NCBI GenBank assembly: GCA_964500645.1
Contig: CAZCOH010000001.1
Span: forward strand, 24,967-88,966
Origin: an uncultured Dehalococcoidia bacterium
Lineage (GTDB): Bacteria; Chloroflexota; Dehalococcoidia; Lucifugimonadales; UBA826
Direction of reading: 5' to 3'
DNA length: 64,000 nt
The notes beneath the pieces are model-generated. The model was not told where the DNA came from. It saw only the letters and a list, made by a program, of their open reading frames with translations, and did not search any database. Positions 7,094 through 56,665 of the stretch are shown here, in pieces. The position numbers and the translations under genes were made by a program. Position 1 is the stretch's first letter. Each line of letters opens with the position of its first letter.

Positions 7094-8734
7094 TTGGAAA
7101 ACAAGCCCAATATAATACTCATACTAGCTGATGACATGGGATATTCCGATCTGGGGTGTTACGGCTCAGAAATTCAGACTCCAAATATTGATTCCCTAGC
7201 TGAAAACGGAATCTTATTTTCCCAAATGTATAACTCCGCGAGGTGCTGCCCATCTCGAGCTGCTTTGTTAACAGGTTTAAATCCGCACCAGGCAGGTATA
7301 GGTCACATGGTATCCACTTTCGGAATTCAATCACCATTACATTCTGGGCCGTATCAAGGTTATCTAAACAAAAATTGTGCAACTATTGCAGAAGTTCTTA
7401 GAATTAGTGGTTATTCTACTTACATGTCAGGAAAGTGGCATGTAGGTGGTGGATATGACCTCGTAAACGAAAAGTCATGGTCCGCAGGTGCTGAAGGTAA
7501 CCCGATTCCCACACAACGCGGATTTGATGAGTTTTTTGGAATTGTTGCCGGAGCTGCAAATTATTTTCATCCTCGCACCTTAATGAAGAACGATACTTTC
7601 ATAGGGATTGGTGAAGATTCTTTTTATCTGACAGATGCAATTAGTGATGAAGCAGTGTCAATGATCGATGACGCTTCACAAAAAGACAATCCATTTTTCA
7701 TGCATATTGCTTACACTGCACCCCACTGGCCTCTCCACGCGTTAGAAGAAGACATAGCCAAATATGAGGGAACCTACAAGATGGGATGGGACAACCTCAG
7801 AGCTAACAGGCATGAAGAACTAAAAGGCAAAAAAATACTGGATGCAAAATGGGATATATCTCCCCGAAATTCTTCTTCACAATCATGGAAAACATCGAAA
7901 GACAAAACTTGGGAAGATCTGCGAATGTCAGTGTATTCAGCCATGATAGACAGAATGGACCAAGGCATTGGCAAAATTCTAAAGAAACTCAAGGAATTAA
8001 ATATGGAGGATAATACGATTCTGATGTTTCTTTCAGACAACGGAGGCTGTGCTGAATTTCTAGCCGAAGATTCAAACAGACCGTCACCGTCCCAATACAG
8101 TTCTCCAACACGAGATGGTCGATCCATTAAAGTAGGGAACCGAAAAGACTTACGCCCTGGGCCTGATGATACTTTCATGAGCTACGACTTATCTTGGGCA
8201 AATGCAAGTAATTCTCCATTCCGTCTATTCAAAAGATGGACTCATGAAGGTGGAATTTCAACCCCATTTATTGTCAGTTGGCCTAATAAAATAAAGCGAG
8301 CACAGATAGCACATTCACCAACACACATAATAGATATTGCAACCACTATTTATGAAATCACCGGTGCAAACTACCCTGATGAAATGTACGGCCAAGAAAT
8401 CAAGCCACTGGAAGGAGAAAGTTTTTATGGAGCTTTTGAAAATGAAAAATGGCAACGTAAATCTCCAATATTCTGGGAACATGAAGGTAGTCGGGCAGTC
8501 CGTGATGGAGAGTGGAAACTCGTTTGCGAGGTAGGGTCGAATTGGGAAATTTATAATATGTCCCAAGACAGAACAGAGCTAACAAACCTTTTGAATGAAG
8601 AACAAGACAGGGTTCATAGGATGAAGGTCCAGTATCGTGAATGGTCAGATAGATGCGAGGTATCCGAATGGCCGGTTCATCAATCTAGGTGGGATCCCAA
8701 AATGATCTCCACACATGCCCATAGCTCAGGATAA
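7094..8734 (+). CDS. Arylsulfatase (Cys-type, formylglycine-dependent)
   Basis: 546 aa. ILILADDMGYSDLGCYG and the signature ARCCPSRAALLTG (C-x-P-x-R). SD AAAGGAGG precedes the TTG start. Confidence 0.9.
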   Translation: MENKPNIILILADDMGYSDLGCYGSEIQTPNIDSLAENGILFSQMYNSARCCPSRAALLTGLNPHQAGIGHMVSTFGIQSPLHSGPYQGYLNKNCATIAEVLRISGYSTYMSGKWHVGGGYDLVNEKSWSAGAEGNPIPTQRGFDEFFGIVAGAANYFHPRTLMKNDTFIGIGEDSFYLTDAISDEAVSMIDDASQKDNPFFMHIAYTAPHWPLHALEEDIAKYEGTYKMGWDNLRANRHEELKGKKILDAKWDISPRNSSSQSWKTSKDKTWEDLRMSVYSAMIDRMDQGIGKILKKLKELNMEDNTILMFLSDNGGCAEFLAEDSNRPSPSQYSSPTRDGRSIKVGNRKDLRPGPDDTFMSYDLSWANASNSPFRLFKRWTHEGGISTPFIVSWPNKIKRAQIAHSPTHIIDIATTIYEITGANYPDEMYGQEIKPLEGESFYGAFENEKWQRKSPIFWEHEGSRAVRDGEWKLVCEVGSNWEIYNMSQDRTELTNLLNEEQDRVHRMKVQYREWSDRCEVSEWPVHQSRWDPKMISTHAHSSG

Positions 8735-8740
8735 TCTCCT

Positions 8741-9997
8741 TTATTCCTGGCGTCTTATAGCTGGAGAACCAATCAAGAAGTAGGCTGAAAGCAAGAATCC
8801 CAGAACGCCCATGGCAGACAAGGCCCATCGTGGGGATGTTATGTCAGCAAACCATCCAACCAATAAACTGAAGAAAACAACCATACCCATCACTACCCTA
8901 TATACACTCATGACACGCACTCTATATTCATCATCAACCAAAGTCTGAGTCATAACTCCATTTGTAGTTCTATAAGCTGTTTGTGTCGCTCCAAATAAAG
9001 CCAATATAAGAAATGCTGACGGAATGAAGGTTGCCTGACTAAGTGAAAAGGTAAGTATTGCACTGAGAATTGCTGCAATGATACATAACATCCCTCTCAT
9101 TCGAGGAAATCCAAACGCCGACAACATAAATACCATGACAAACCCGCCTGCCCCATTTACCGCCATCAAATAACCCCCATAATCAACTCCCTGTCCCAAG
9201 ACTCCCACCGTGTACATAGGCAATAAAAAAATCACCGGATGGCAAATAATGTTTGGAGATGCCGAAAGAATCATCAACAGAGATAAAGATCTCTGTTTAT
9301 TCCATAAGTACCTAAACCCATCGATTATGTCTGAAAATACACCACTAACACCAGATACTGGAGAAGCCGTCCTTATCCCAACATAGTAAGGGGTCTTCAT
9401 TGGAAGTAGAGCAATAACAACTCCAAGGTATAAAACCGCTTCAATCAAAAAATTCCAAAAGAATCCAAATGACGCAACGATCAATCCTCCGATAAAAGGA
9501 CCAATCATTCTTGTACCCGGTATTGTAATAACACTTGTAGCATAAGCATTACTTATAGCGTGCTGAGGCACAGAATTAGCTATCAATGCTTGTCGCACAG
9601 GCATCTTAATAGACTCACAGGAGCCCGCTATTAGAGCATAAGTGTAAGCATGCCATACCTCAGCTAAGTCCAGTTTTATCAGAAGTGCAAATAAAGAGGC
9701 CATGAATATCATAAAGATTTCAATTGTTATCAGAAGCTTGCGCCTATCCAGCCTGTCCCCCAGAACGCCTCCCCAGGGACCGATCAAAATCCCAGGTAAA
9801 GCAACAACTCCACCAATGCCCATGACAAGCAAAGTGGAATTACTGGAAGACTGTGATAAATGCCGTACGAACCAACCTAAAGTCAGCAACTGTAACCACA
9901 TCGCCGTGTTGCCACAAAAATTTGCAGTCCACAGAAAGCGATAATCCCGATATTGACGCCAAGAATCTAATGTTTGAATTCTAGGTATGAAAGACAA
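8741..9997 (-). CDS. MFS transporter
   Basis: 418 aa multi-pass membrane protein with an MFS loop motif (GVLGDRLDRRK). TTG start. Confidence 0.85.
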   Translation of the reverse strand: MSFIPRIQTLDSWRQYRDYRFLWTANFCGNTAMWLQLLTLGWFVRHLSQSSSNSTLLVMGIGGVVALPGILIGPWGGVLGDRLDRRKLLITIEIFMIFMASLFALLIKLDLAEVWHAYTYALIAGSCESIKMPVRQALIANSVPQHAISNAYATSVITIPGTRMIGPFIGGLIVASFGFFWNFLIEAVLYLGVVIALLPMKTPYYVGIRTASPVSGVSGVFSDIIDGFRYLWNKQRSLSLLMILSASPNIICHPVIFLLPMYTVGVLGQGVDYGGYLMAVNGAGGFVMVFMLSAFGFPRMRGMLCIIAAILSAILTFSLSQATFIPSAFLILALFGATQTAYRTTNGVMTQTLVDDEYRVRVMSVYRVVMGMVVFFSLLVGWFADITSPRWALSAMGVLGFLLSAYFLIGSPAIRRQE

Positions 9998-44920: not shown

Positions 44921-47194
44921 ATGACTTCAGAACCAAATTTTCAAGGCAAAATTGGGAAAACCTACAAAGACTCGATACCAGACTGGAAAGAACCGCCTTC
45001 CACTCATGATGGAAACTCACCCAATGTACTTATAATTCTCCTCGATGACACCGGGTTTGCTAATTTCGGATGCTTTGGCTCTACGATCGAGACCCCCAAT
45101 ATTGACTCACTCGCCTCAAATGGTCTCAGGTATTCAAATTTTCACGTTACTCCACTATGTTCACCAACAAGGGCTTCATTACTGACAGGCAGAAATCACC
45201 ACACCGTCGGCATGGGATCGATCGGTAACTACCATGACGCTGGATTCCCAAATCTTAGAGGACTCGTGAGTAGAAATGCCGCTCTACTTTCGGAAATGCT
45301 CAGAGAGGAGGGGTATGCCACTTATGCTCTAGGCAAATGGCATCTAAATCCTTCGGAAGAAACTTCAGCCGCCGGCCCCAGACACGGATGGCCTCTACAG
45401 AGGGGTTTCGATAGATTTTATGGATTCCTTGCCGGAGCCACAGATCAATTTTATCCCGAGCTAAGCTACGACAATCATCCTGTTGATCCCCCTAAAACAC
45501 CCGAGAACGGATATCACGTAACAGAGGATCTTGTCGATCACGGAATTCAATTTATAAACGACCAGAAATCCATTTATCCAAACACTCCGTTTTTTATGTA
45601 TCTTGCGACCGGTGCGATGCACTATCCACACCAGGTTCCGAAAAAATATATAGAAAAATATCGCGGCAAGTTTGATGAAGGATGGGATGTGATAAGAGAA
45701 AGGTATTTCAACAAGCAACTTGAACTTGGGATCATACCTGAAAATACTAAACTTCCTCCCAGGAATCCCGGAGTGCAACCCTGGAACGAGTTGGGGGAAA
45801 ACGAAAAGAAATTCATGTGCAGACTTCAGGAAACGTGGGCAGGTTTCCTCGACCATACTGATGAGCAAATAGGAAGACTCATTGACCATCTTAAGTCTAT
45901 AGGTGAGATCGATAACACAGTCGTCATAATTACAGCAGATAACGGAACCAGCCAAAATGGTGGCCCCTATGGTGTAATGAGAGTGGGCCCAAGTTCAGCT
46001 CGAAATGCGGCCAATGACGGAAGAACTGTTGGTGAAGAGATCGGACTGCCCACCATAGAAGAGAATTTCTCAGAGATCCAATCCATTCTTGATGAAATAG
46101 GTGGCCCAAAGAGCTACACAGATATTCCATGGGGATGGTCACAAGTAGGAAACACTCCACTTAGATGGTACAAACAAGATACCCACGGTGGTGGTGTGCG
46201 GGTACCTATGATCGTTCATTATCCTTCTTCATCAGATCAAGGGTCCACAAGTGGAAAGATTCGAAACCAGTTTCATCACGTAAGTGACATTACGCCTACT
46301 GTGCTGGACATACTTTCTATAGAACCAAGATCAAGTTACCTTGGTTACGATCAAATACCAATTTCGGGTACTAGCTTTGCTTACACACTAAGAAAAGAAA
46401 ACGATGACCAATCTCAAAAGAAAGTTCAGTATTTTGAGATGTCCGGGAACCGGGCAATATGGTCGGAAGGCTGGAAGGCGGTCACGCGCCACAGAAAAGA
46501 CGATGATTATGACTCAGAAACATGGGAACTCTACAACCTTACCGAAGACTTCTCTGAAACAAATGACCTGTCTGAATCCGAACCAGTAAGACTGAAAAAG
46601 ATGATTGAACTATGGTGGAGCGAAGCAGAAAAACATGGGGCCCTACCATTGGACGACAGATCCTTTGAAAAAACCGGCCCCAGTAAACAACCTGGCGCAT
46701 ATCACGAAGACCTACACTACCATTACAAAGCCCCTCTATCCCATATATCCTCACCATTATCACCGCAGATATTAAGAGGTGACTGGACCCTTACGGCAGA
46801 TATTACTATCGATAATCATGAGACTGAAGGAGTTATATATTCCCAAGGGTCTTCTATGGATGGATTTTCACTTTTCATCAAAGAAAACAAGCTTAACCTG
46901 TCACACAAGTCATCGGGCAGCGAAACCCGCTTACAATCCACAGAGTCACTGGACGTCGGTAGAGTAACTATAGTCCTACATAGCAATGACGATTCTGAAG
47001 GTGGGTTGTCAATTTCAATGCATGTAGATGATAAAAACTTCGGAATAGTCTCAATCGACAGTAAATCTAAAGGATCCCGAATGGGCACGGATGTGGGAAA
47101 AGACGCATTATCTCCCATTTCTGATGCATATGATGCTCCTTTTCCTTTCACAGGAACAATACATACCGTCGATATCGTGGTTGTACCGGGATGA
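44921..47194 (+). CDS. Arylsulfatase (Cys-type), long form with a C-terminal beta-rich extension
   Basis: 757 aa. VLIILLDDTGFANFGCFG and PLCSPTRASLLTG (C-x-P-x-R). About 200 aa of extra C-terminal domain. Confidence 0.9.
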   Translation: MTSEPNFQGKIGKTYKDSIPDWKEPPSTHDGNSPNVLIILLDDTGFANFGCFGSTIETPNIDSLASNGLRYSNFHVTPLCSPTRASLLTGRNHHTVGMGSIGNYHDAGFPNLRGLVSRNAALLSEMLREEGYATYALGKWHLNPSEETSAAGPRHGWPLQRGFDRFYGFLAGATDQFYPELSYDNHPVDPPKTPENGYHVTEDLVDHGIQFINDQKSIYPNTPFFMYLATGAMHYPHQVPKKYIEKYRGKFDEGWDVIRERYFNKQLELGIIPENTKLPPRNPGVQPWNELGENEKKFMCRLQETWAGFLDHTDEQIGRLIDHLKSIGEIDNTVVIITADNGTSQNGGPYGVMRVGPSSARNAANDGRTVGEEIGLPTIEENFSEIQSILDEIGGPKSYTDIPWGWSQVGNTPLRWYKQDTHGGGVRVPMIVHYPSSSDQGSTSGKIRNQFHHVSDITPTVLDILSIEPRSSYLGYDQIPISGTSFAYTLRKENDDQSQKKVQYFEMSGNRAIWSEGWKAVTRHRKDDDYDSETWELYNLTEDFSETNDLSESEPVRLKKMIELWWSEAEKHGALPLDDRSFEKTGPSKQPGAYHEDLHYHYKAPLSHISSPLSPQILRGDWTLTADITIDNHETEGVIYSQGSSMDGFSLFIKENKLNLSHKSSGSETRLQSTESLDVGRVTIVLHSNDDSEGGLSISMHVDDKNFGIVSIDSKSKGSRMGTDVGKDALSPISDAYDAPFPFTGTIHTVDIVVVPG

Positions 47195-48300: not shown

Positions 48301-49986
48301 TTAAGTTCTATCACTGATCTCGACAGTTTGTGTTGGCCCGTTCAAGAACATGACCATACTTTTGCCAGCCGGCCCACCAAACGACATCAGTTCTATCTTC
48401 TCTGGACGTTCAAATCCAGGAAATTCAGTTGTGCGAGCTTGATCACTGGGAAGATCTAATATCCATCGCCAAGGTTTTAATAGAAATGATGGGTTAATTC
48501 TGAAGCTATTTTGCAAGGAAGCAGCACTAATTTTTGTGTTGGCCCACAAGAAATCTCTAACCATTTCTTTAGACCAACCTTCCTTGGCGCATATTTCAGC
48601 ATGATCAGGAGCCAATATAACGATTGTTCCGGTACCGCCCTCAGGATCGTATGGATCAGGATCAGACCAACGCAGGCTGGTGTAGCCACCACGCCCGGTG
48701 ATGGCCCCGGATACACCTCGAAGAAGTGGCTCCGGTTCGTAATTGTTAAGGTCTGCGGCATCGATAATGTTTCTCACGCCTCCTACTGTGACTGTAGAAG
48801 AAGATTGTGAAAATCCTTTTGAGGTGTGAAATTGAGGCCATATCTCCGGGAAATTGTCTTGGGATTCCGCGGCACACAGACTGAATTTTGCTGCAGAACC
48901 AATTGTGTCCATATCCATTTCACCAGGATAGTTGTGCCCTACGTTCATTAAAGTAAGTCTCAGTGCTCTGCCTAGAATAACGTTGACTCTAGATTGCCTT
49001 CCTGGGCCTAACGTAGCCTGTTTGGAATTAATACCGAGTTCGTCGACAATTGGTCCGTTTACAAGCATAAAAGGGGCGTCTGGAGAGGTAGACATTAACC
49101 ATTGTCGTGCTCTTCCTCCCATTTGTATGATTGATTTACACGCCGCAATTATGATGGGAAGGTGCGCTGGTTCGCATCCGGCCATTGCACTAGAAATAGC
49201 AATTTTTTTGACTGTAGCGATCCCCATACCCGGAGGCAAATGGCCCACTATCTGCTCTGAAGGTAGAGTTGTACCAGAAAGCAGTTCATTCACCCTTTCT
49301 TCTGTTGGAGGAACTAGAGGAAAGCCATCACCCCACCCTTTATCGAGGAAATCTTTATTGAAATTTTCCCAAGCGTCTAACTTATCTTTCCCTTTAAAAG
49401 TTATTGATGGACCGTCTGCTCTGTAGGCTTCTACATCAGAGGAATCTATTGTTAAAGAGTCTGGGTTTGTTAGACCATTAACAATTGAGTCGATTTGCTT
49501 CTCTATTTCTCTACTCGATTCTTCTGGGCTGACTGAGGTTATAACGCAGGGAATAGTTACGAACGGAGCAGTTTCCATTCCAAAAGCTTTCGCTGTTGCT
49601 ACTGTATCTTTCTGGAAACCAGAAGAAGCTATTGAAACTGTTGGAAGCCCCTTTCTTTCAAGATAAATCATGTCGTGGACAAGCCACGACGTACATTGGC
49701 CTCAATCTGAAGAAGAACCAACAGCGACATCACATTCTTTAGCGACTTTATCTAATACAGCCGTCGGAGTTGGTATTCCACCTTCATATAGTGTCACATC
49801 GATGTGTTTATACTTTTCTTTAAGTTTAGTTCCTACCCTGTTAAGCACAGCATCTCCACCTCTTTTACGATTCCAGACTAGCCCAACCTTTAGTCCGTCA
49901 AGGTTGTTTGGTCTTATTGCTGGATCTGTGGTTTGAGCTGGTCCTCTTAATTCAGACACAGGATTTAGGACATGTAAATCCGACAT
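48301..49986 (-). CDS. Candidate selenoprotein: UGSC-like module (U-G-Q-C, in-frame TGA at 49704..49702) fused to a large uncharacterised domain
   Basis: Track ORFs 49702..49986 and 48301..49671 share a frame, separated by one TGA plus 10 sense codons: ...ECDVAVGSSSD-U-GQCTSWLVHD-MIYLERKGLP... A 7 bp hairpin starts 11 nt after the TGA. Strong SD GGAGG precedes ATG 49986. Confidence 0.6.
49672..49690 (-). promoter_or_regulatory. Candidate bacterial SECIS-like hairpin
   Basis: mRNA GUCGUGG-CUUGU-CCACGAC (7 bp stem, 5 nt loop containing GU) starts 11 nt downstream of the in-frame UGA. Confidence 0.45.
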
Positions 49987-50147
49987 AGTTCCTCCAACGA
50001 TATCTATAGGTAAGCGTGAATACTATAGATTTAGGAGAAGTTATAGCAACCCAGACGTACAGAGAGTATCTCTCTGCCATCTAGCCATGCAGGAATTTCA
50101 GATAAAAGGTAGTGACCTTTTTGTGCCTGAAAATGACGAAAATTTCG

Positions 50148-51284
50148 TCACCATTGAACAAACATCGGCATTACAACGTGGGTGTAACCTTCTTTACCTG
50201 TTGAACGTACCACGCCCGGACTGGAAGGATTCGTCATCTCGAAGGCAACCTCACCGTCACCCAGAACGTCAAGAACTTCCGATAGATATTTATTGTTAAA
50301 TGCTATCCGGGAGTCTTCATCCACCTCCCCATTAACATCTCCGTCAATCTCACCCTGATTGTCACCAAGTTCTTCAGCTCTTGAAGATATTGATATACCA
50401 GACCCCTCTTCACCATCCATGATCTGTACTCTGACAATTCCACTACCGTCTCTTGCAAATATGGAAGCGGACCGAACAGCTCTCATAAAATCTGATTGCT
50501 GGACTATTACGCTATTTCTGTGATCTTCAGGTATTAGAGACCTGAAATTAGGAAAAGCACCTGGCATAAGCTGTGACACAATTTCAACGGTCCCTATATT
50601 AAAGAGAGCATGTGTTCCGGCTGAGGTTACGGTGAATTCAACTTCTGAATCATCGCTGCCAATTAATCTTCCAACCTCCTGCATAGCTTTTGCAGGAATA
50701 ATAAACTCTGACGGCTCAGGAAGTGGTTCTGATAGTTTCCCTTCATAAACTGCCAACCTGAAACCATCTGCGGCTGCAAAGGTAAAATCATCGCCGTTTA
50801 CTTCAACTTTTATCCCGGTAAGTACAGGGCGTGAATCTTCGGTTGCTGCAGCAAAAGCCACATGGGCAATAGTCTCTCTCAGTACCTGAGGATCAATTTT
50901 GATTGTGGATCCCTCATCTACAGTTGGTATTGGAGGAAATTCTTCAGCATCTGTTCCATTTATGTTCGCTTCAAATCTCTGACATTTTAGAGAAGTACTT
51001 AAGGGATCAGGAGTGGTCTTAATATCAATCCGGTCATCCGGTAGGGAATTAACAAAGTCGGTGAGAAGTCTTGCAGGAATTGTTACCTCACCTTCCTGTT
51101 CAACCTGAGCACCAATCTTGGTAGTTATAGCTATATCCAGATTAGTGGCTGTCAGGACAAGCATACTGTCTTCTGTGGATATTTTAACATTCTGCAACAC
51201 TGGCAAATTGCTACGTGTAGCAACAGCCCGTCCCACGATAGCTAATCCTCTGCTTAAATTCTGTTGAAGGCATGATACCTGCAT
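50148..51284 (-). CDS. dnaN: DNA polymerase III beta sliding clamp
   Basis: 378 aa. MQVSCLQQNLSRGLAIVGRAVATRSNLPVLQNVKI... Three-domain length, C-terminus ...HVVMPMFVQW. Terminates with TGA. Confidence 0.92.
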   Translation of the reverse strand: MQVSCLQQNLSRGLAIVGRAVATRSNLPVLQNVKISTEDSMLVLTATNLDIAITTKIGAQVEQEGEVTIPARLLTDFVNSLPDDRIDIKTTPDPLSTSLKCQRFEANINGTDAEEFPPIPTVDEGSTIKIDPQVLRETIAHVAFAAATEDSRPVLTGIKVEVNGDDFTFAAADGFRLAVYEGKLSEPLPEPSEFIIPAKAMQEVGRLIGSDDSEVEFTVTSAGTHALFNIGTVEIVSQLMPGAFPNFRSLIPEDHRNSVIVQQSDFMRAVRSASIFARDGSGIVRVQIMDGEEGSGISISSRAEELGDNQGEIDGDVNGEVDEDSRIAFNNKYLSEVLDVLGDGEVAFEMTNPSSPGVVRSTGKEGYTHVVMPMFVQW

Positions 51285-53044: not shown

Positions 53045-53698
53045 ATGAAGAGGCCGCTTTCCAAACGACAAAAAACAATGCTCGACTATATCCAAGATTT
53101 CATGAAGTCAAACAGCTATCCGCCTACCGTACGGGACATACAGGCGGGTTGCGATATAAGTTCTACTTCAGTTGTTGATTACAATCTGCAGATTTTGCAG
53201 CGAGAAGGATACCTACAGAGGAAAAGGGAAGTTTCTCGTGGTATAGAACTCCTTGGTGAAGCTGCATCCTCAGCAGGGGATACATTCAGAAACCTTATGA
53301 CAGTCCCCGTTCTGGGAAACATAGCAGCCGGTGAACCTTTACCTGTTTCCAATACCGGTCCCTGGAACAACGCCGACTTCGACAATGTTGATCTACCTCC
53401 ATTTTTAACCAAGGGAAAAGAAAACATTTTTGCCTTAAGGGTTAAAGGTGAATCTATGATTGATGCTCTTGTCGGAGATGGAGACCTCGTTCTACTTGAA
53501 CCTGTAACACAACCACAGAATGGTGACATGGTAGCTGCCTGGTTACAGGACAGAGAAGAAGCTACTTTAAAACATTTTTACCTTGACGGAGATCAGGTCC
53601 GTCTCGTCCCGGCTAACAGCCAGTTAAGTCCAATCACTGTTGACGCCACAAACGTCGCAGTAAAAGGACGTGTAGTTGGAGTAGTAAGAACCATGTAG
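53045..53698 (+). CDS. lexA: LexA repressor
   Basis: 217 aa. N-terminal wHTH (...YPPTVRDIQAGCDISSTSVV...), cleavage site ...NIAAGEP..., Ser ...VKGESM..., Lys ...VKGRVVGV... Confidence 0.93.
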   Translation: MKRPLSKRQKTMLDYIQDFMKSNSYPPTVRDIQAGCDISSTSVVDYNLQILQREGYLQRKREVSRGIELLGEAASSAGDTFRNLMTVPVLGNIAAGEPLPVSNTGPWNNADFDNVDLPPFLTKGKENIFALRVKGESMIDALVGDGDLVLLEPVTQPQNGDMVAAWLQDREEATLKHFYLDGDQVRLVPANSQLSPITVDATNVAVKGRVVGVVRTM

Positions 53699-53738
53699 GA
53701 AATTTCCTACACCAACAAATAATTTTGATTATCTCAGG

Positions 53739-53774
53739 GACTGATTCCGCGCCGGAGTCGGTCTCTTTGGTTTG
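53739..53774 (+). terminator. Putative rho-independent terminator after lexA
   Basis: 11 bp stem GACUGAUUCCG/CGGAGUCGGUC (two G-U pairs), 3 nt loop, followed by UCUUUGGUUUG. Confidence 0.5.
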
Positions 53775-53834
53775 TAAGAGATATAATCGTTCAGCAGATA
53801 ATTCCTTTAGAAAAGACTCTTAAGGTGGGAAATA

Positions 53835-56282
53835 TTGGCGGAAGCAGTTATGCCCGGGATTAACAAAATCACCCTCCCTGTTACAGGTATGACCTGTGCT
53901 GCCTGCGTAGTTCACGTATCAGCTGCTCTTGAAAAACTCCCGGAAGTTTTGGAAACAGATGTAAACCTGACTACTGAAAAGGCCACGATAAGCCTGACCG
54001 ATGAGCTCGCTTCAATTCACCTCATATCGGACACGCTGAAAAAGGCCGGTTATGGACTGGCCAGCAGCTCTGTAATCCTATCGATCGGCAAAATGACATG
54101 TGCCGCCTGTGTATCTCACGTGGAAACTGGGATAAGTTCTGTGAATGGAGTCCTATCTTGCTCTGTAAATCTCGCCACAGAAAAAGCTAATGTGAACTAC
54201 CTCCCTGAAATCACTTCAACATTTGAAATAATCAACGCTGTTGAAAAAACAGGTTATACGGCCGAGAGAATTGACTCGGATGATTACAGTTATGGGGAAA
54301 CATCGAGCGAAACAAGGATATTGACTAAGAAAATAGCCCTTGGAGGATTTACCTCTGTACTCATAGCCTTGACCAATATATTCCCGTCATTGAAAGAAGT
54401 CGGAGACATAAACCCTCAGTACATCTTTCTTGCTATGGCAACAGGTGTTCAATTCTGGTCCGGCAGTCACTTCTACATAAGCTCATGGTCGGCGCTAAAA
54501 CTCAAGACCACAAACATGAACACACTGGTAGTACTTGGGACAACAGTTGCCTATTTATATAGCCTCGTTATTACAATCACGGAAGCCATTGGAATTGACT
54601 TTGGTGATGGGCAAACTCATTATTCAGCATCAAGTTCCATAATCACACTTGTTTTAGTCGGTCGTTTATTAGAGACAAAAGCCCGAAAAAAAGCATCGAA
54701 TTCAATAAGATCTCTTCTCAATCTCAGTCCAAAAATCGCAAGAGTTATCAGATCAACAGAAGTGGAAATTCCTAGAGATGAACTCATTGTGGGAGACAAA
54801 ATCATCGTCAGACCGGGTGAAAGTTTTCCCACGGATGGATTAATTTATGAAGGCAGAGGAACAGTAGATGAATCGATGCTTACAGGTGAAAGCATACCTG
54901 CGCTAAAAGAGACGGGAAGTTATGTTTTCGGGTCTACGGTAAATGGGACTAATACCTTTCAATACACAGCTACAAAGGTTGGAAAAGACACGCTTCACTC
55001 AAAAATCATTAAGCTTGTCGAAGAGGCACAGAACTCAAAGGCTCCTATACAAAGACTAGCCGACCAGATATCAGGTATTTTTGTTCCTGTCGTTCTTCTT
55101 ATCGCCCTCCTGACTTTCTGTGCATGGTTTATATTCGAGCCATCCCGATCATTGAATACGGCCATGATTACAACCGTAGCAGTCCTTGTAATAGCCTGTC
55201 CCTGTGCGATGGGCCTCGCGACACCAACCGCAATAGTTGTTGGAACTGGAAGAGGAGCAACTATGGGTATTCTTTTTAGAAATGCACAATCACTGGAAAC
55301 TTCGCAAAAAATCGATACCGTAGTCTTCGACAAAACTGGCACTCTCACGTACGGCACTCCACGTGTGGAATCAATATGGGAAGTGGAACTAACTCGATCA
55401 GAAATTCTCAAATATGCCGGATCAGTCAGCCGACGATCTGAACATGTTTTGGCAAAATCGATAGCTGAAACCGCTTTTCAAGAAAGTATAAAATTAAGTA
55501 ACCCAGAAGACTTCCAAGCTCATCCAGGTATGGGATCCATAGCCAAGGTCGATGGAAAGACTGTTGCAATCGGTAACAGGGCTTTTTTACTTGAAATGGG
55601 TTTGGCTGTAGACAGCAAGACAAATGGATCCACAGAAACACTGGTCATGGTTGACGATGAATTAGCAGGTGTCATCAACTTTACAGACGAGCCAAGAAAA
55701 GAAGCCAAAAAAAGTATTGAATTGCTTAAAAAAATGGGAATGACCGTGGTACTGCTAAGTGGAGACAACCTGACTGTAGCGAATAAAACAGCCTCGTTGT
55801 TGGGGATATCTGAAGTAGAAGCAGAGGCACTTCCAGATCAGAAATTAGAGTACATAAAAAATCTCCAATCAAAAGGAAAAGTTGTTGCAATGGTCGGAGA
55901 TGGCATAAACGATGCACCTGCCCTCGCTCAGTCAGATATAGGAATATCTATGGGAGGAGGAACCGACGCAGCTATAGAAGCCGGAGATATAACACTTGTA
56001 AGAGAAGATCTACGGACTCTACCTGAGGCTGTTTCTTTGAGTAGAGTCACGATGAGAAAGATAAAACAAAATTTATTCTGGGCCTTTGCTTATAACATTT
56101 TCCTCATACCGGTTGCGGCAGGTTTACTTCATTTAATTCTAGGAACTGACGGGACCATTTCATTAACACCTTTAGTTAATAGTGATGGGTTTATGAACCC
56201 AATCGCAGCTTCGTGTGCGATGGCCCTCAGCTCAATATGTGTCGTTTTAAATTCAATCCATCTCAGAAAGGTTCGTCTGTAG
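53835..56282 (+). CDS. copA: Copper-translocating P1B-type ATPase
   Basis: 815 aa. Two N-terminal HMA domains (GMTCAACV twice), TGES, CPC, DKTGTLT, MVGDGINDAPAL. SD AAGGTGGG precedes the TTG start. Confidence 0.93.
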   Translation: MAEAVMPGINKITLPVTGMTCAACVVHVSAALEKLPEVLETDVNLTTEKATISLTDELASIHLISDTLKKAGYGLASSSVILSIGKMTCAACVSHVETGISSVNGVLSCSVNLATEKANVNYLPEITSTFEIINAVEKTGYTAERIDSDDYSYGETSSETRILTKKIALGGFTSVLIALTNIFPSLKEVGDINPQYIFLAMATGVQFWSGSHFYISSWSALKLKTTNMNTLVVLGTTVAYLYSLVITITEAIGIDFGDGQTHYSASSSIITLVLVGRLLETKARKKASNSIRSLLNLSPKIARVIRSTEVEIPRDELIVGDKIIVRPGESFPTDGLIYEGRGTVDESMLTGESIPALKETGSYVFGSTVNGTNTFQYTATKVGKDTLHSKIIKLVEEAQNSKAPIQRLADQISGIFVPVVLLIALLTFCAWFIFEPSRSLNTAMITTVAVLVIACPCAMGLATPTAIVVGTGRGATMGILFRNAQSLETSQKIDTVVFDKTGTLTYGTPRVESIWEVELTRSEILKYAGSVSRRSEHVLAKSIAETAFQESIKLSNPEDFQAHPGMGSIAKVDGKTVAIGNRAFLLEMGLAVDSKTNGSTETLVMVDDELAGVINFTDEPRKEAKKSIELLKKMGMTVVLLSGDNLTVANKTASLLGISEVEAEALPDQKLEYIKNLQSKGKVVAMVGDGINDAPALAQSDIGISMGGGTDAAIEAGDITLVREDLRTLPEAVSLSRVTMRKIKQNLFWAFAYNIFLIPVAAGLLHLILGTDGTISLTPLVNSDGFMNPIAASCAMALSSICVVLNSIHLRKVRL

Positions 56283-56326
56283 TTGTAATATAGTGTTACT
56301 CAAACCTACAACTTCTTGAGGATTGC

Positions 56327-56530
56327 ATGAAATTACCTTTATTTCGGAAACGTCAGAGTCCCAATTCAATTGATCCCGTGTGCGATATGGAAGTAACGAC
56401 AAAAAATCCAGCAGGAGGGTCGTGGAAATACAAGGGAATTACATACATGTTCTGTGCAACCGGGTGCAAAATAGCTTTTCAAAAAGAACCAGACAGTTAT
56501 ATATCTGGCGACAAGAAAATAGAGATGTAA
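56327..56530 (+). CDS. YHS domain protein
   Basis: 67 aa. ...DPVCDMEV...YKGITYMFCATGCKIAFQKEPDSY... YHS/TRASH-type metal-binding motif immediately downstream of copA. Confidence 0.8.
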   Translation: MKLPLFRKRQSPNSIDPVCDMEVTTKNPAGGSWKYKGITYMFCATGCKIAFQKEPDSYISGDKKIEM

Positions 56531-56579
56531 CTTCAGGAAACTTTTGAGGGATATCATCTATAATTATTGACCTAATAAA

Positions 56580-56665
56580 GCCGAAGTGGCGGAATGGTAG
56601 ACGCGCTGGTCTCAAAAACCAGTGGGAGCAATCCCGTGTGAGTTCGAGTCTCACCTTCGGCACCA
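56580..56665 (+). tRNA. tRNA-Leu (anticodon CAA), CCA encoded
   Basis: Manual fold: acceptor GCCGAAG/CTTCGGC, anticodon stem CTGGT/ACCAG with loop CTCAAAA, long variable arm, T-arm GTGAG-TTCGAGT-CTCAC, then discriminator A plus CCA. Confidence 0.92.

Follow-up and report, generated by a model that had tools for sequence, protein, structure and literature searches.

Within a stretch of 64,000 nucleotides (the window) from an uncultured marine Dehalococcoidia bacterium (GenBank assembly GCA_964500645.1, contig CAZCOH010000001.1, positions 24,967 to 88,966), two open reading frames (ORFs) of the minus strand, of 94 and 456 amino acids (aa), are separated by an in-frame TGA. We are fairly confident that the two are one gene, and that it encodes a 561-aa two-domain selenoprotein in which UGA-95 is decoded as selenocysteine (Sec) by way of a hairpin in the downstream coding sequence. 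Sec read-through had been proposed in the original prediction, which was made from the window alone, and the proposal stands up to comparison: homologs have a Cys aligned at this position, TGA is found there in 90 of 94 copies, the hairpin covaries, and in relatives the gene is linked to selB, selA, and tRNA-Sec.

Probable read-through at the in-frame TGA

The gene runs on the minus strand from 49986 to 48301 in one frame of 561 sense codons closed by TAA, and its single interruption is the TGA at 49704..49702 (codon 95). The two ORFs, at 49702..49986 (94 aa) and 48301..49671 (456 aa), share this frame exactly as had been noted, and single-frame translation confirms the joined length of 561 aa. 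In translation the recoding site reads ...KECDVAVGSSSD-TGA-GQCTSWLVHD-MIYLERKG..., with VAVGSSSD as the residues before the TGA, and the predicted junction peptide of the recoded product is ...ECDVAVGSSSD-U-GQCTSWLVHDMIYLER. A Shine-Dalgarno-like GGAGG (49991..49995) can be read in the sequence 4 nt 5′ of the first ATG. Together with the contiguous Cys homologs described below, the single frame with its one TGA marks 48301..49986 as a complete recoded gene. An identical gene is found in a metagenome-assembled genome (MAG) of the same species (locus L091).

A search over 5.8 billion proteins returned 143 relatives. Most of them are about 455 aa long, their start having been placed at the Met that follows the TGA. 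The informative ones are the contiguous Cys homologs, which are 548-584 aa long and cover 95-100% of the recoded product. P0029, P0030, P0034, P0035, P0041, P0051, and P0054 are contiguous across the junction and have a Cys precisely at the TGA column, and all the contiguous Cys relatives except P0051 carry the motif GD-C-GSC-TSW. We also surveyed the codon itself, in 86 loci from metagenomes and species-representative genomes that contain 94 UGSC copies. At the recoding column we observe TGA in 90 copies and a Cys codon (TGY) in the other 4, in loci that range over Chloroflexota, Betaproteobacteria, Binatia, Acidobacteriota, Thermodesulfobacteriota, and Bacillaceae. The alignment of 77 distinct sequences has zero gaps in the 54-nt stretch around the recoding site.

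The protein profiles agree. The UGSC domain matches Pfam PF24696 at residues 6-173 (49468..49971) with an E-value of 2.5e-35 and 122.6 bits (vs. a cutoff of 25). The match occupies profile positions 2-171 of 172 and runs straight across the TGA, which bears out the UGSC assignment of the original prediction. An in-frame UGA that aligns with the Cys of homologs, and that is conserved on both flanks, is the pattern by which bacterial selenoproteins are recognized. Thus, from the aligned sequences, UGA-95 (49702..49704) is very probably read through as Sec.

Could the TGA be a true stop? The locus would then be a pseudogene or a pair of genes, one for a 94-aa piece of UGSC and the other for a separate 456-aa protein that begins with the ATG at 49671. 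The gene callers of every public assembly do annotate the locus as two ORFs, TGA does serve as a stop elsewhere in the window, and separate UGSC and partner genes do exist as pairs in other taxa. But those genuine two-gene versions split only after a complete UGSC domain, whereas a stop here would cut through the middle of the Pfam domain, 3 residues short of the Cys that would pair with the Sec. The ATG at 49671 that the gene callers use as a start has no Shine-Dalgarno-like motif, and it lies directly 3′ of the 3′ arm of the hairpin. The same in-frame TGA has been kept without indels in 90 copies across phyla, and contiguous homologs have a Cys at that position. All of this makes a true stop highly improbable.

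The hairpin downstream of the UGA and the Sec machinery

The hairpin GUCGUGG-CUUGU-CCACGAC (49672..49690) has a 7-bp stem and a 5-nt loop, and it is the minimum-free-energy fold of the site. Its stem begins 11 nt and its loop 18 nt after the UGA, and the loop CUUGU contains GU; the original prediction had described the stem, its 11-nt spacing, and the GU correctly. Whether the hairpin is conserved in orthologous loci is a question for the alignment, and there it proves to be conserved with compensatory changes. Across the 77 distinct sequences, 89.6% of the cells can pair, as opposed to 19-48% when the partner column is slid. Double-sided changes occur in 6 of the 7 stem pairs, as in the changes from G-C to C-G at 21/27 and from U-A to A-U at 16/32; the pair 18/30 changes from G-C to A-U or to C-G among homologs. 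We count 38 compensatory cells where 8.5 are expected, a value reached in none of 500 shuffles. A stem in the same register with at least 6 of 7 pairs is present in 63 of the 77 sequences; the loop contains a G in every one of these, and GU in 49. In divergent subfamilies, an alternative hairpin is found a few nucleotides off.

A covariance model built from the hairpin alignment (R1) was searched against the window and against held-out forms of the gene. It finds exactly one site in the 64 kb, with an E-value of about 5e-14. Sec forms outside the training set score 61-70 bits, and Cys forms score 23-51 bits.

In bacterial selenocysteine insertion sequences (SECIS), the apical loop lies 16-37 nt after the UGA (PMC10778597), and E. 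coli SECIS constructs have a spacing of 11 nt (PMC10778597, PMC8326192). For the hairpin in the window this distance is 18 nt; the loop contains a G, and the hairpin is conserved among orthologs. It resembles the SECIS of the E. coli fdhF type in being a stem-loop inside the ORF that starts 11 nt after the UGA, in the G or GU of its apical loop, and in the 18 nt between UGA and loop. It differs in having no evident bulged U and in its sequence, which is unrelated.

A simple terminator scan flags this same hairpin as the only terminator-like site of the region. One could thus take 49690..49672 for an intrinsic terminator or attenuator after a short ORF, with its 7-bp stem, 5 G-C pairs, and the tail ATGATTTATC. 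However, such sites are no more numerous than expected from shuffled sequence, the hairpin sits inside a conserved protein domain, and in G+C-rich homologs the hairpin tail has no U run (for example ...GACACCGCAGAA). We consider a terminator extremely improbable. The case illustrates how SECIS elements inside ORFs can pass for attenuators in terminator scans.

At the level of the family, the link of the fusion gene to the Sec machinery is direct. In the Burkholderiales MAG SJ348 (L063:2007-9159, JADLEZ010000369.1), the gene order is selB, the TGA-containing fusion gene, selA, and tRNA-Sec (Rfam RF01852, 66.8 bits). Paracoccus ferrooxidans has an annotated selB some 3 kb downstream of its family gene. 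Dehalococcoidia MAGs are themselves among the most selenoprotein-rich bacteria (PMC13326102). The other strand of the SJ348 locus carries another full-length selB-like gene, and it is unusual for a single selenoprotein gene to be flanked by two selB genes.

Some observations weigh against Sec decoding at this site. None of selA, selB, selD, and tRNA-Sec was found within the 64-kb window. Judged by itself, the hairpin does not stand out from shuffled sequence (z = -1.06, with 29 of 200 shuffles folding equally well), and its significance comes only from the comparison across homologs. Modeling the site as a SECIS, which the original prediction had suggested, works with our own model R1 but not with Rfam, where even a permissive scan of the recoding site gives no matching or relevant model. 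Furthermore, the stem encodes a conserved peptide, SW..HD, so that the conserved ...TSW-x-x-HD is in part the translation of the hairpin, and some Cys forms retain the hairpin; for these two reasons the RNA constraint and the protein constraint are entangled. As an example, the Cys form of Natrialba (L080) has a perfect SECIS-like hairpin, which suggests either that the gene was acquired recently from a bacterium that uses Sec or that the constraint comes purely from the peptide.

The UGA could also be read through with an amino acid other than Sec, either under a reassigned code (Trp or Gly) or by near-cognate suppression inserting Cys or Trp. Read-through of stop codons does occur in bacteria, and no Sec machinery has been seen for the source of this DNA within its 64 kb. 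On the other hand, a reassigned genetic code is ruled out because TGA is an ordinary stop in 11 of the 49 long ORFs of the window. One of them is dnaN (50148..51284), for which this had been noted at the outset, and whose last Pfam domain is complete. The homologs without a TGA always have Cys at this position, within a CxxC, and the hairpin is conserved at the distance of a SECIS. Genes of the family are linked to selA, selB, and tRNA-Sec, and Dehalococcoidia are documented as Sec-rich. Read-through with anything but Sec is thus very unlikely. A scan of the window for further in-frame TGA recoding candidates gave none that is convincing.

The UGSC domain and its partner

The Sargasso Sea and Global Ocean Sampling (GOS) surveys of 2005-2008 made UGSC known as a major selenoprotein family of aquatic environments, and recent reviews still describe it as uncharacterized (PMC13188914, PMC9312934). 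The family model that the original prediction mentioned does exist, as NCBIfam NF041046 and as Pfam PF24696. The window protein is like other members in its end-to-end match to the domain, in its U-G-x-C at the same position, and in the SECIS just downstream. It is also like them in the excess of Sec over Cys forms, which is 255 vs. 21 sequences in GOS (PMC2398784) and 90 vs. 4 here. It differs in its motif, UGQC instead of UGSC, and in its length: the stand-alone proteins of NF041046 have about 147 positions, and the window protein adds a domain of about 380 aa.

All 15 of 15 full-length fusion members match NF041046. The best match (E-value 7.9e-31, 107 bits) is below the equivalog cutoff of 125 bits, which the window protein, with 107 bits, does not reach. 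Because the fusions score below this cutoff, the NCBI pipeline can neither name nor recode them, and the public records show two "hypothetical proteins".

In the alignment of the motif, SSSD-U-GQC of the window corresponds to GD-C-GSC in the Cys homologs and to D-U-G-[SGTAH]-C in about 90 loci. The U-x-x-C pair recognized in the original prediction is well supported: U95 is partnered by Cys98 (TGT, 49693..49695), a codon whose TG is invariant or nearly so in the alignment of 77 sequences (A4), and UxxC or CxxC is found in 90 of 94 copies.

We modeled two structures with AlphaFold2, the full-length Cys homolog P0034 (pLDDT, the per-residue confidence, of 92; predicted TM-score, pTM, of 0.93) and the C-terminal domain of the window protein. 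The UGSC domain of P0034 is modeled as five beta-alpha units. Its Cys98, the equivalent of the Sec, immediately precedes the N-terminus of helix 3, whose first turn contains Cys101. A Foldseek search with this domain gives weak flavodoxin-like matches only, and no thioredoxin matches. Thus, the UGSC domain is predicted to have a flavodoxin/Rossmann-like alpha/beta fold, in contrast with the thioredoxin-like fold that the literature has guessed for it.

The partner domain comprises residues 185-561 (about 380 aa, 48304..49434). The original prediction could not assign this region to any family, and neither could we: it has no sequence match in Pfam, NCBIfam, or PDB, and no Foldseek match in PDB with an E-value below 1e-3 (the best is about 2e-3, with TM <= 0.24), for a model with a pLDDT of 92.2. 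The likenesses that Foldseek does report, to fumarate hydratase, to Toblerone-fold enzymes, and to PrpD, all at TM <= 0.24, are too weak to use.

The family of the partner domain is large. An exhaustive search (E <= 1e-3) collected 4,057 representatives at 50% identity, 628 of them with E <= 1e-30. Among them are proteins of about 350 aa that consist of this domain alone, and others of about 710 aa that have it twice in tandem. P0262, P0264, P0270, P0289, P0314, and P0379, at about 710-740 aa, have two tandem partner domains and apparently no UGSC domain. Lengths need some care here. P0111, a candidate stand-alone C-terminal gene, is actually a truncated call of another Sec fusion, and many of the search matches of 350-405 aa may be the same artifact. 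Within the domain, the polar residues D220, R340, N348, and E374 are invariant, and T228, N335, D358, T361, and K367 are nearly so. To judge from its conservation, this polar set looks like an active site.

The original prediction presented the joining of a UGSC module to such a region as unusual, which it is not. A "UGSC/Unknown_1" fusion was reported in 2008 (Zhang & Gladyshev, PLoS Genet, Fig. S1A; PMC2398784) from aquatic metagenomes, where Unknown_1 also occurs alone, with a conserved Cys, and the fusion is the common architecture in hundreds of genomes. As in the window, a UGSC selenoprotein is there joined to a conserved domain of unassigned function, and Unknown_1 is likely to be our C-terminal domain. 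The recoding in the window is textbook, and the gene is not of a new kind; the interest lies in the function of the family and the fold of the partner.

Gene neighborhoods and a possible function

In Natrinema, Halalkalicoccus, Halorientalis, Arthrobacter, Paracoccus, and a Dehalococcoidia locus (L004), UGSC and the partner domain are encoded by two genes side by side, and both gene orders are seen. Since the two are fused in some genomes and adjacent in others, they are expected to work together. By this gene-fusion argument, and with a full-length model (P0034) at pTM 0.93, the functional coupling of the partner-domain family to UGSC is strongly supported.

The arrangements vary. Locus L004 (3638-9458, GCA_024711665.1; the same in L005 and L006) has four TGA-recoded genes in a row: two tandem fusion paralogs, a stand-alone partner-domain gene (7654-8781), and a stand-alone Sec-UGSC gene (8922-9458). 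Loci L039 and L079 have three tandem Sec fusions each. On haloarchaeal megaplasmids and in Natrialba (L173, L175, L180, L080), a Cys-form UGSC goes with the partner, and sometimes two partner paralogs flank the UGSC gene. The IncP conjugative plasmid p2-T1 of Acidovorax sp. T1 (NZ_CP021650.1, L176:5926-8599) carries a Sec-form (TGA) fusion gene, of which the PLSDB gene table annotates the 96-aa N-terminal ORF alone. The gene lies beside IS1071 and IS91 transposases, with genes for a phosphoenolpyruvate (PEP)-mutase-family protein, a flavin-dependent (FAD) oxidoreductase, and TctC. It is a mobile gene that depends on the Sec machinery of its host.

We surveyed the neighborhoods of 91 loci and 10 annotated plasmid contexts. 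The tight neighbors that recur are TctC/Bug carboxylate-binding proteins in 11 betaproteobacterial loci, MmgE/PrpD enzymes in 9 loci of several phyla, and TrxB-like flavoproteins in 5 loci, along with short-chain dehydrogenases/reductases and acyl-CoA dehydrogenases. A further group of neighbors ("cluster 2", 22 loci) was discarded, as it consists mostly of antisense ORFs of the fusion gene itself. In Arthrobacter, trxB-trxA stands directly upstream, followed by the partner domain and then UGSC; in Variovorax a TrxB-like gene is followed by TctC and then by the fusion. In haloarchaea the UGSC/partner pair is surrounded by CoA-transferase, CoA-ester lyase, RraA, PEP-mutase-family, and TRAP/TTT binding proteins. 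Non-redox fusions, with GDMGTS in place of GDUGSC, lie beside aconitase X and DUF126 in Vibrio europaeus and Sporomusa termitida (L178:3331-8618, L179:2226-8825), and in Vibrio europaeus an enolase paralog follows 3 nt downstream.

What could the protein do? Our proposal starts from UGA-95, very probably decoded as Sec under the direction of the candidate SelB-type SECIS hairpin 11 nt downstream in the coding sequence. The Sec/Cys pair would cycle between selenol/thiol and selenenyl-sulfide, and thioredoxin or a TrxB-like flavoprotein would re-reduce it. The C-terminal domain would bind a small, carboxylated organic substrate, to which the pair would deliver electrons or a nucleophilic selenolate. 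The protein would thus be a selenol/thiol reductase that is driven by thioredoxin and whose substrate is a small carboxylated compound. The model draws on the trxB-trxA and TrxB-like neighbors, the carboxylate-binding and organic-acid neighbors, and weak matches to GrdB/GrdF, taken together, and we hold it tentatively, at somewhat less than even confidence.

In this proposal the protein would be broadly analogous to selenoprotein B of the glycine and proline reductases. GrdB/GrdF (glycine/sarcosine/betaine reductase) and PrdB (D-proline reductase) likewise have a UxxC in an alpha/beta domain, and carboxylate substrates are plausible here too. Operons of grd genes also carry trxB-trxA, as does the operon of the Arthrobacter member. 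In 4 of 15 members there are weak GrdB/GrdF matches, always to one short stretch around the CxxC, with E-values of 0.05-0.14 and about 11 bits (vs. cutoffs of 602-800; TIGR01917/NF040794); residues 68-123 of P0034, for instance, weakly match TIGR01917 positions 317-371. On the other hand, the hosts here are for the most part haloarchaea and aerobic bacteria of water and soil, whereas Stickland fermentation is the setting of the Grd and Prd proteins. GrdA, GrdE, and PrdA (pyruvoyl) partners are absent from the recurrent neighbors of the 91 loci and from the 10 plasmid contexts.

Several points count against the reductase model. The similarity to GrdB is below significance, and PF07355 (GRDB) gives no match. 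No neighbor gene is universal, and the commonest is found in about 13% of loci. A general relay from the Sec to the conserved Cys271 is ruled out, this residue being Ala in 18 of 77 UxxC forms. Finally, P0098/P0113 and the Vibrio and Sporomusa subfamilies have no Cys or Sec at all at the motif, which implies that the C-terminal domain can work without this redox centre.

This last point leads to a different explanation, in which the UGSC module is not catalytic. The C-terminal domain would be a non-redox organic-acid enzyme, of hydratase, isomerase, or lyase type, within a selenoprotein. UGSC would serve it as a structural or redox-regulatory subunit, or as a disulfide/selenenylsulfide reductase dedicated to maintaining its activity. 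An intact UGSC-like domain without Cys or Sec, in P0098/P0113, Vibrio, and Sporomusa, speaks for this explanation, and the Vibrio and Sporomusa genes adjoin aconitase X and DUF126. PrpD, lyase, and CoA-transferase neighbors recur, and the best Foldseek likeness, though weak, is to class-I fumarate hydratase, Toblerone-fold hydrolases, and PrpD. However, those matches are not significant (TM <= 0.24), the Sec:Cys ratio of about 22:1 argues for a demanding selenol chemistry over regulation, and the co-transcribed trxB-trxA suggests a stoichiometric flow of electrons. We find a non-catalytic UGSC module rather unlikely, though it is the strongest competitor of the reductase model.

The surroundings of the gene in the window itself are as follows. 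A sulfatase gene (44921-47194) lies 1.1 kb from the fusion gene, and a phosphosulfolactate-synthase-family gene is found near the UGSC/partner pair in Arthrobacter (L174:3656-4444) and Natrinema (L173:3494-3961); a link of the family to organosulfonates is possible, with too few cases to judge. On the other side, dnaN (50148-51284) is followed by a YceI-like gene, and the inspected stretch has no dnaA before dnaN. The closest DnaN relative in the searched genome set (86%) belongs to an uncultured Dehalococcoidia MAG, and the synteny of dnaN with the fusion gene is kept in the same species only, not beyond. The stretch 53045-56665 upstream has a LexA gene (53045-53698), a copper/heavy-metal P-type ATPase with two HMA domains (53835-56282), and a tRNA-Leu(CAA) (56580-56665).

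The locus illustrates how these genes come to be misannotated, as a 94-aa and a 456-aa "hypothetical protein", when the cutoff of the NCBI model misses the fused form. The partner domain, with some 4,000 clusters and neither a Pfam entry nor a structural relative, merits a family definition and a solved structure. The operons of cultured strains make the function testable, with Cys forms in Arthrobacter (ERGS1:01, with the pair WP_054009257 and WP_054009256), Variovorax, and haloarchaea, and Sec forms in Paracoccus (P. versutus and P. ferrooxidans), Acidovorax sp. T1 (on the IncP plasmid), and Bacillaceae (Robertmurraya sp. 2P01SA and Bacillus dakarensis). UGSC is one of the most abundant selenoprotein families of aquatic metagenomes. 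More speculatively, and with considerable doubt, UGSC and its partner may form a previously unrecognized class of thioredoxin-dependent selenoenzymes with a substrate-binding domain of new fold, a distant analog of the glycine/proline reductase B proteins for the aerobic world. Through the expansion of paralogs (2-4 copies per Dehalococcoidia locus), such enzymes would reductively transform a variety of small carboxylated compounds of marine and freshwater dissolved organic matter.

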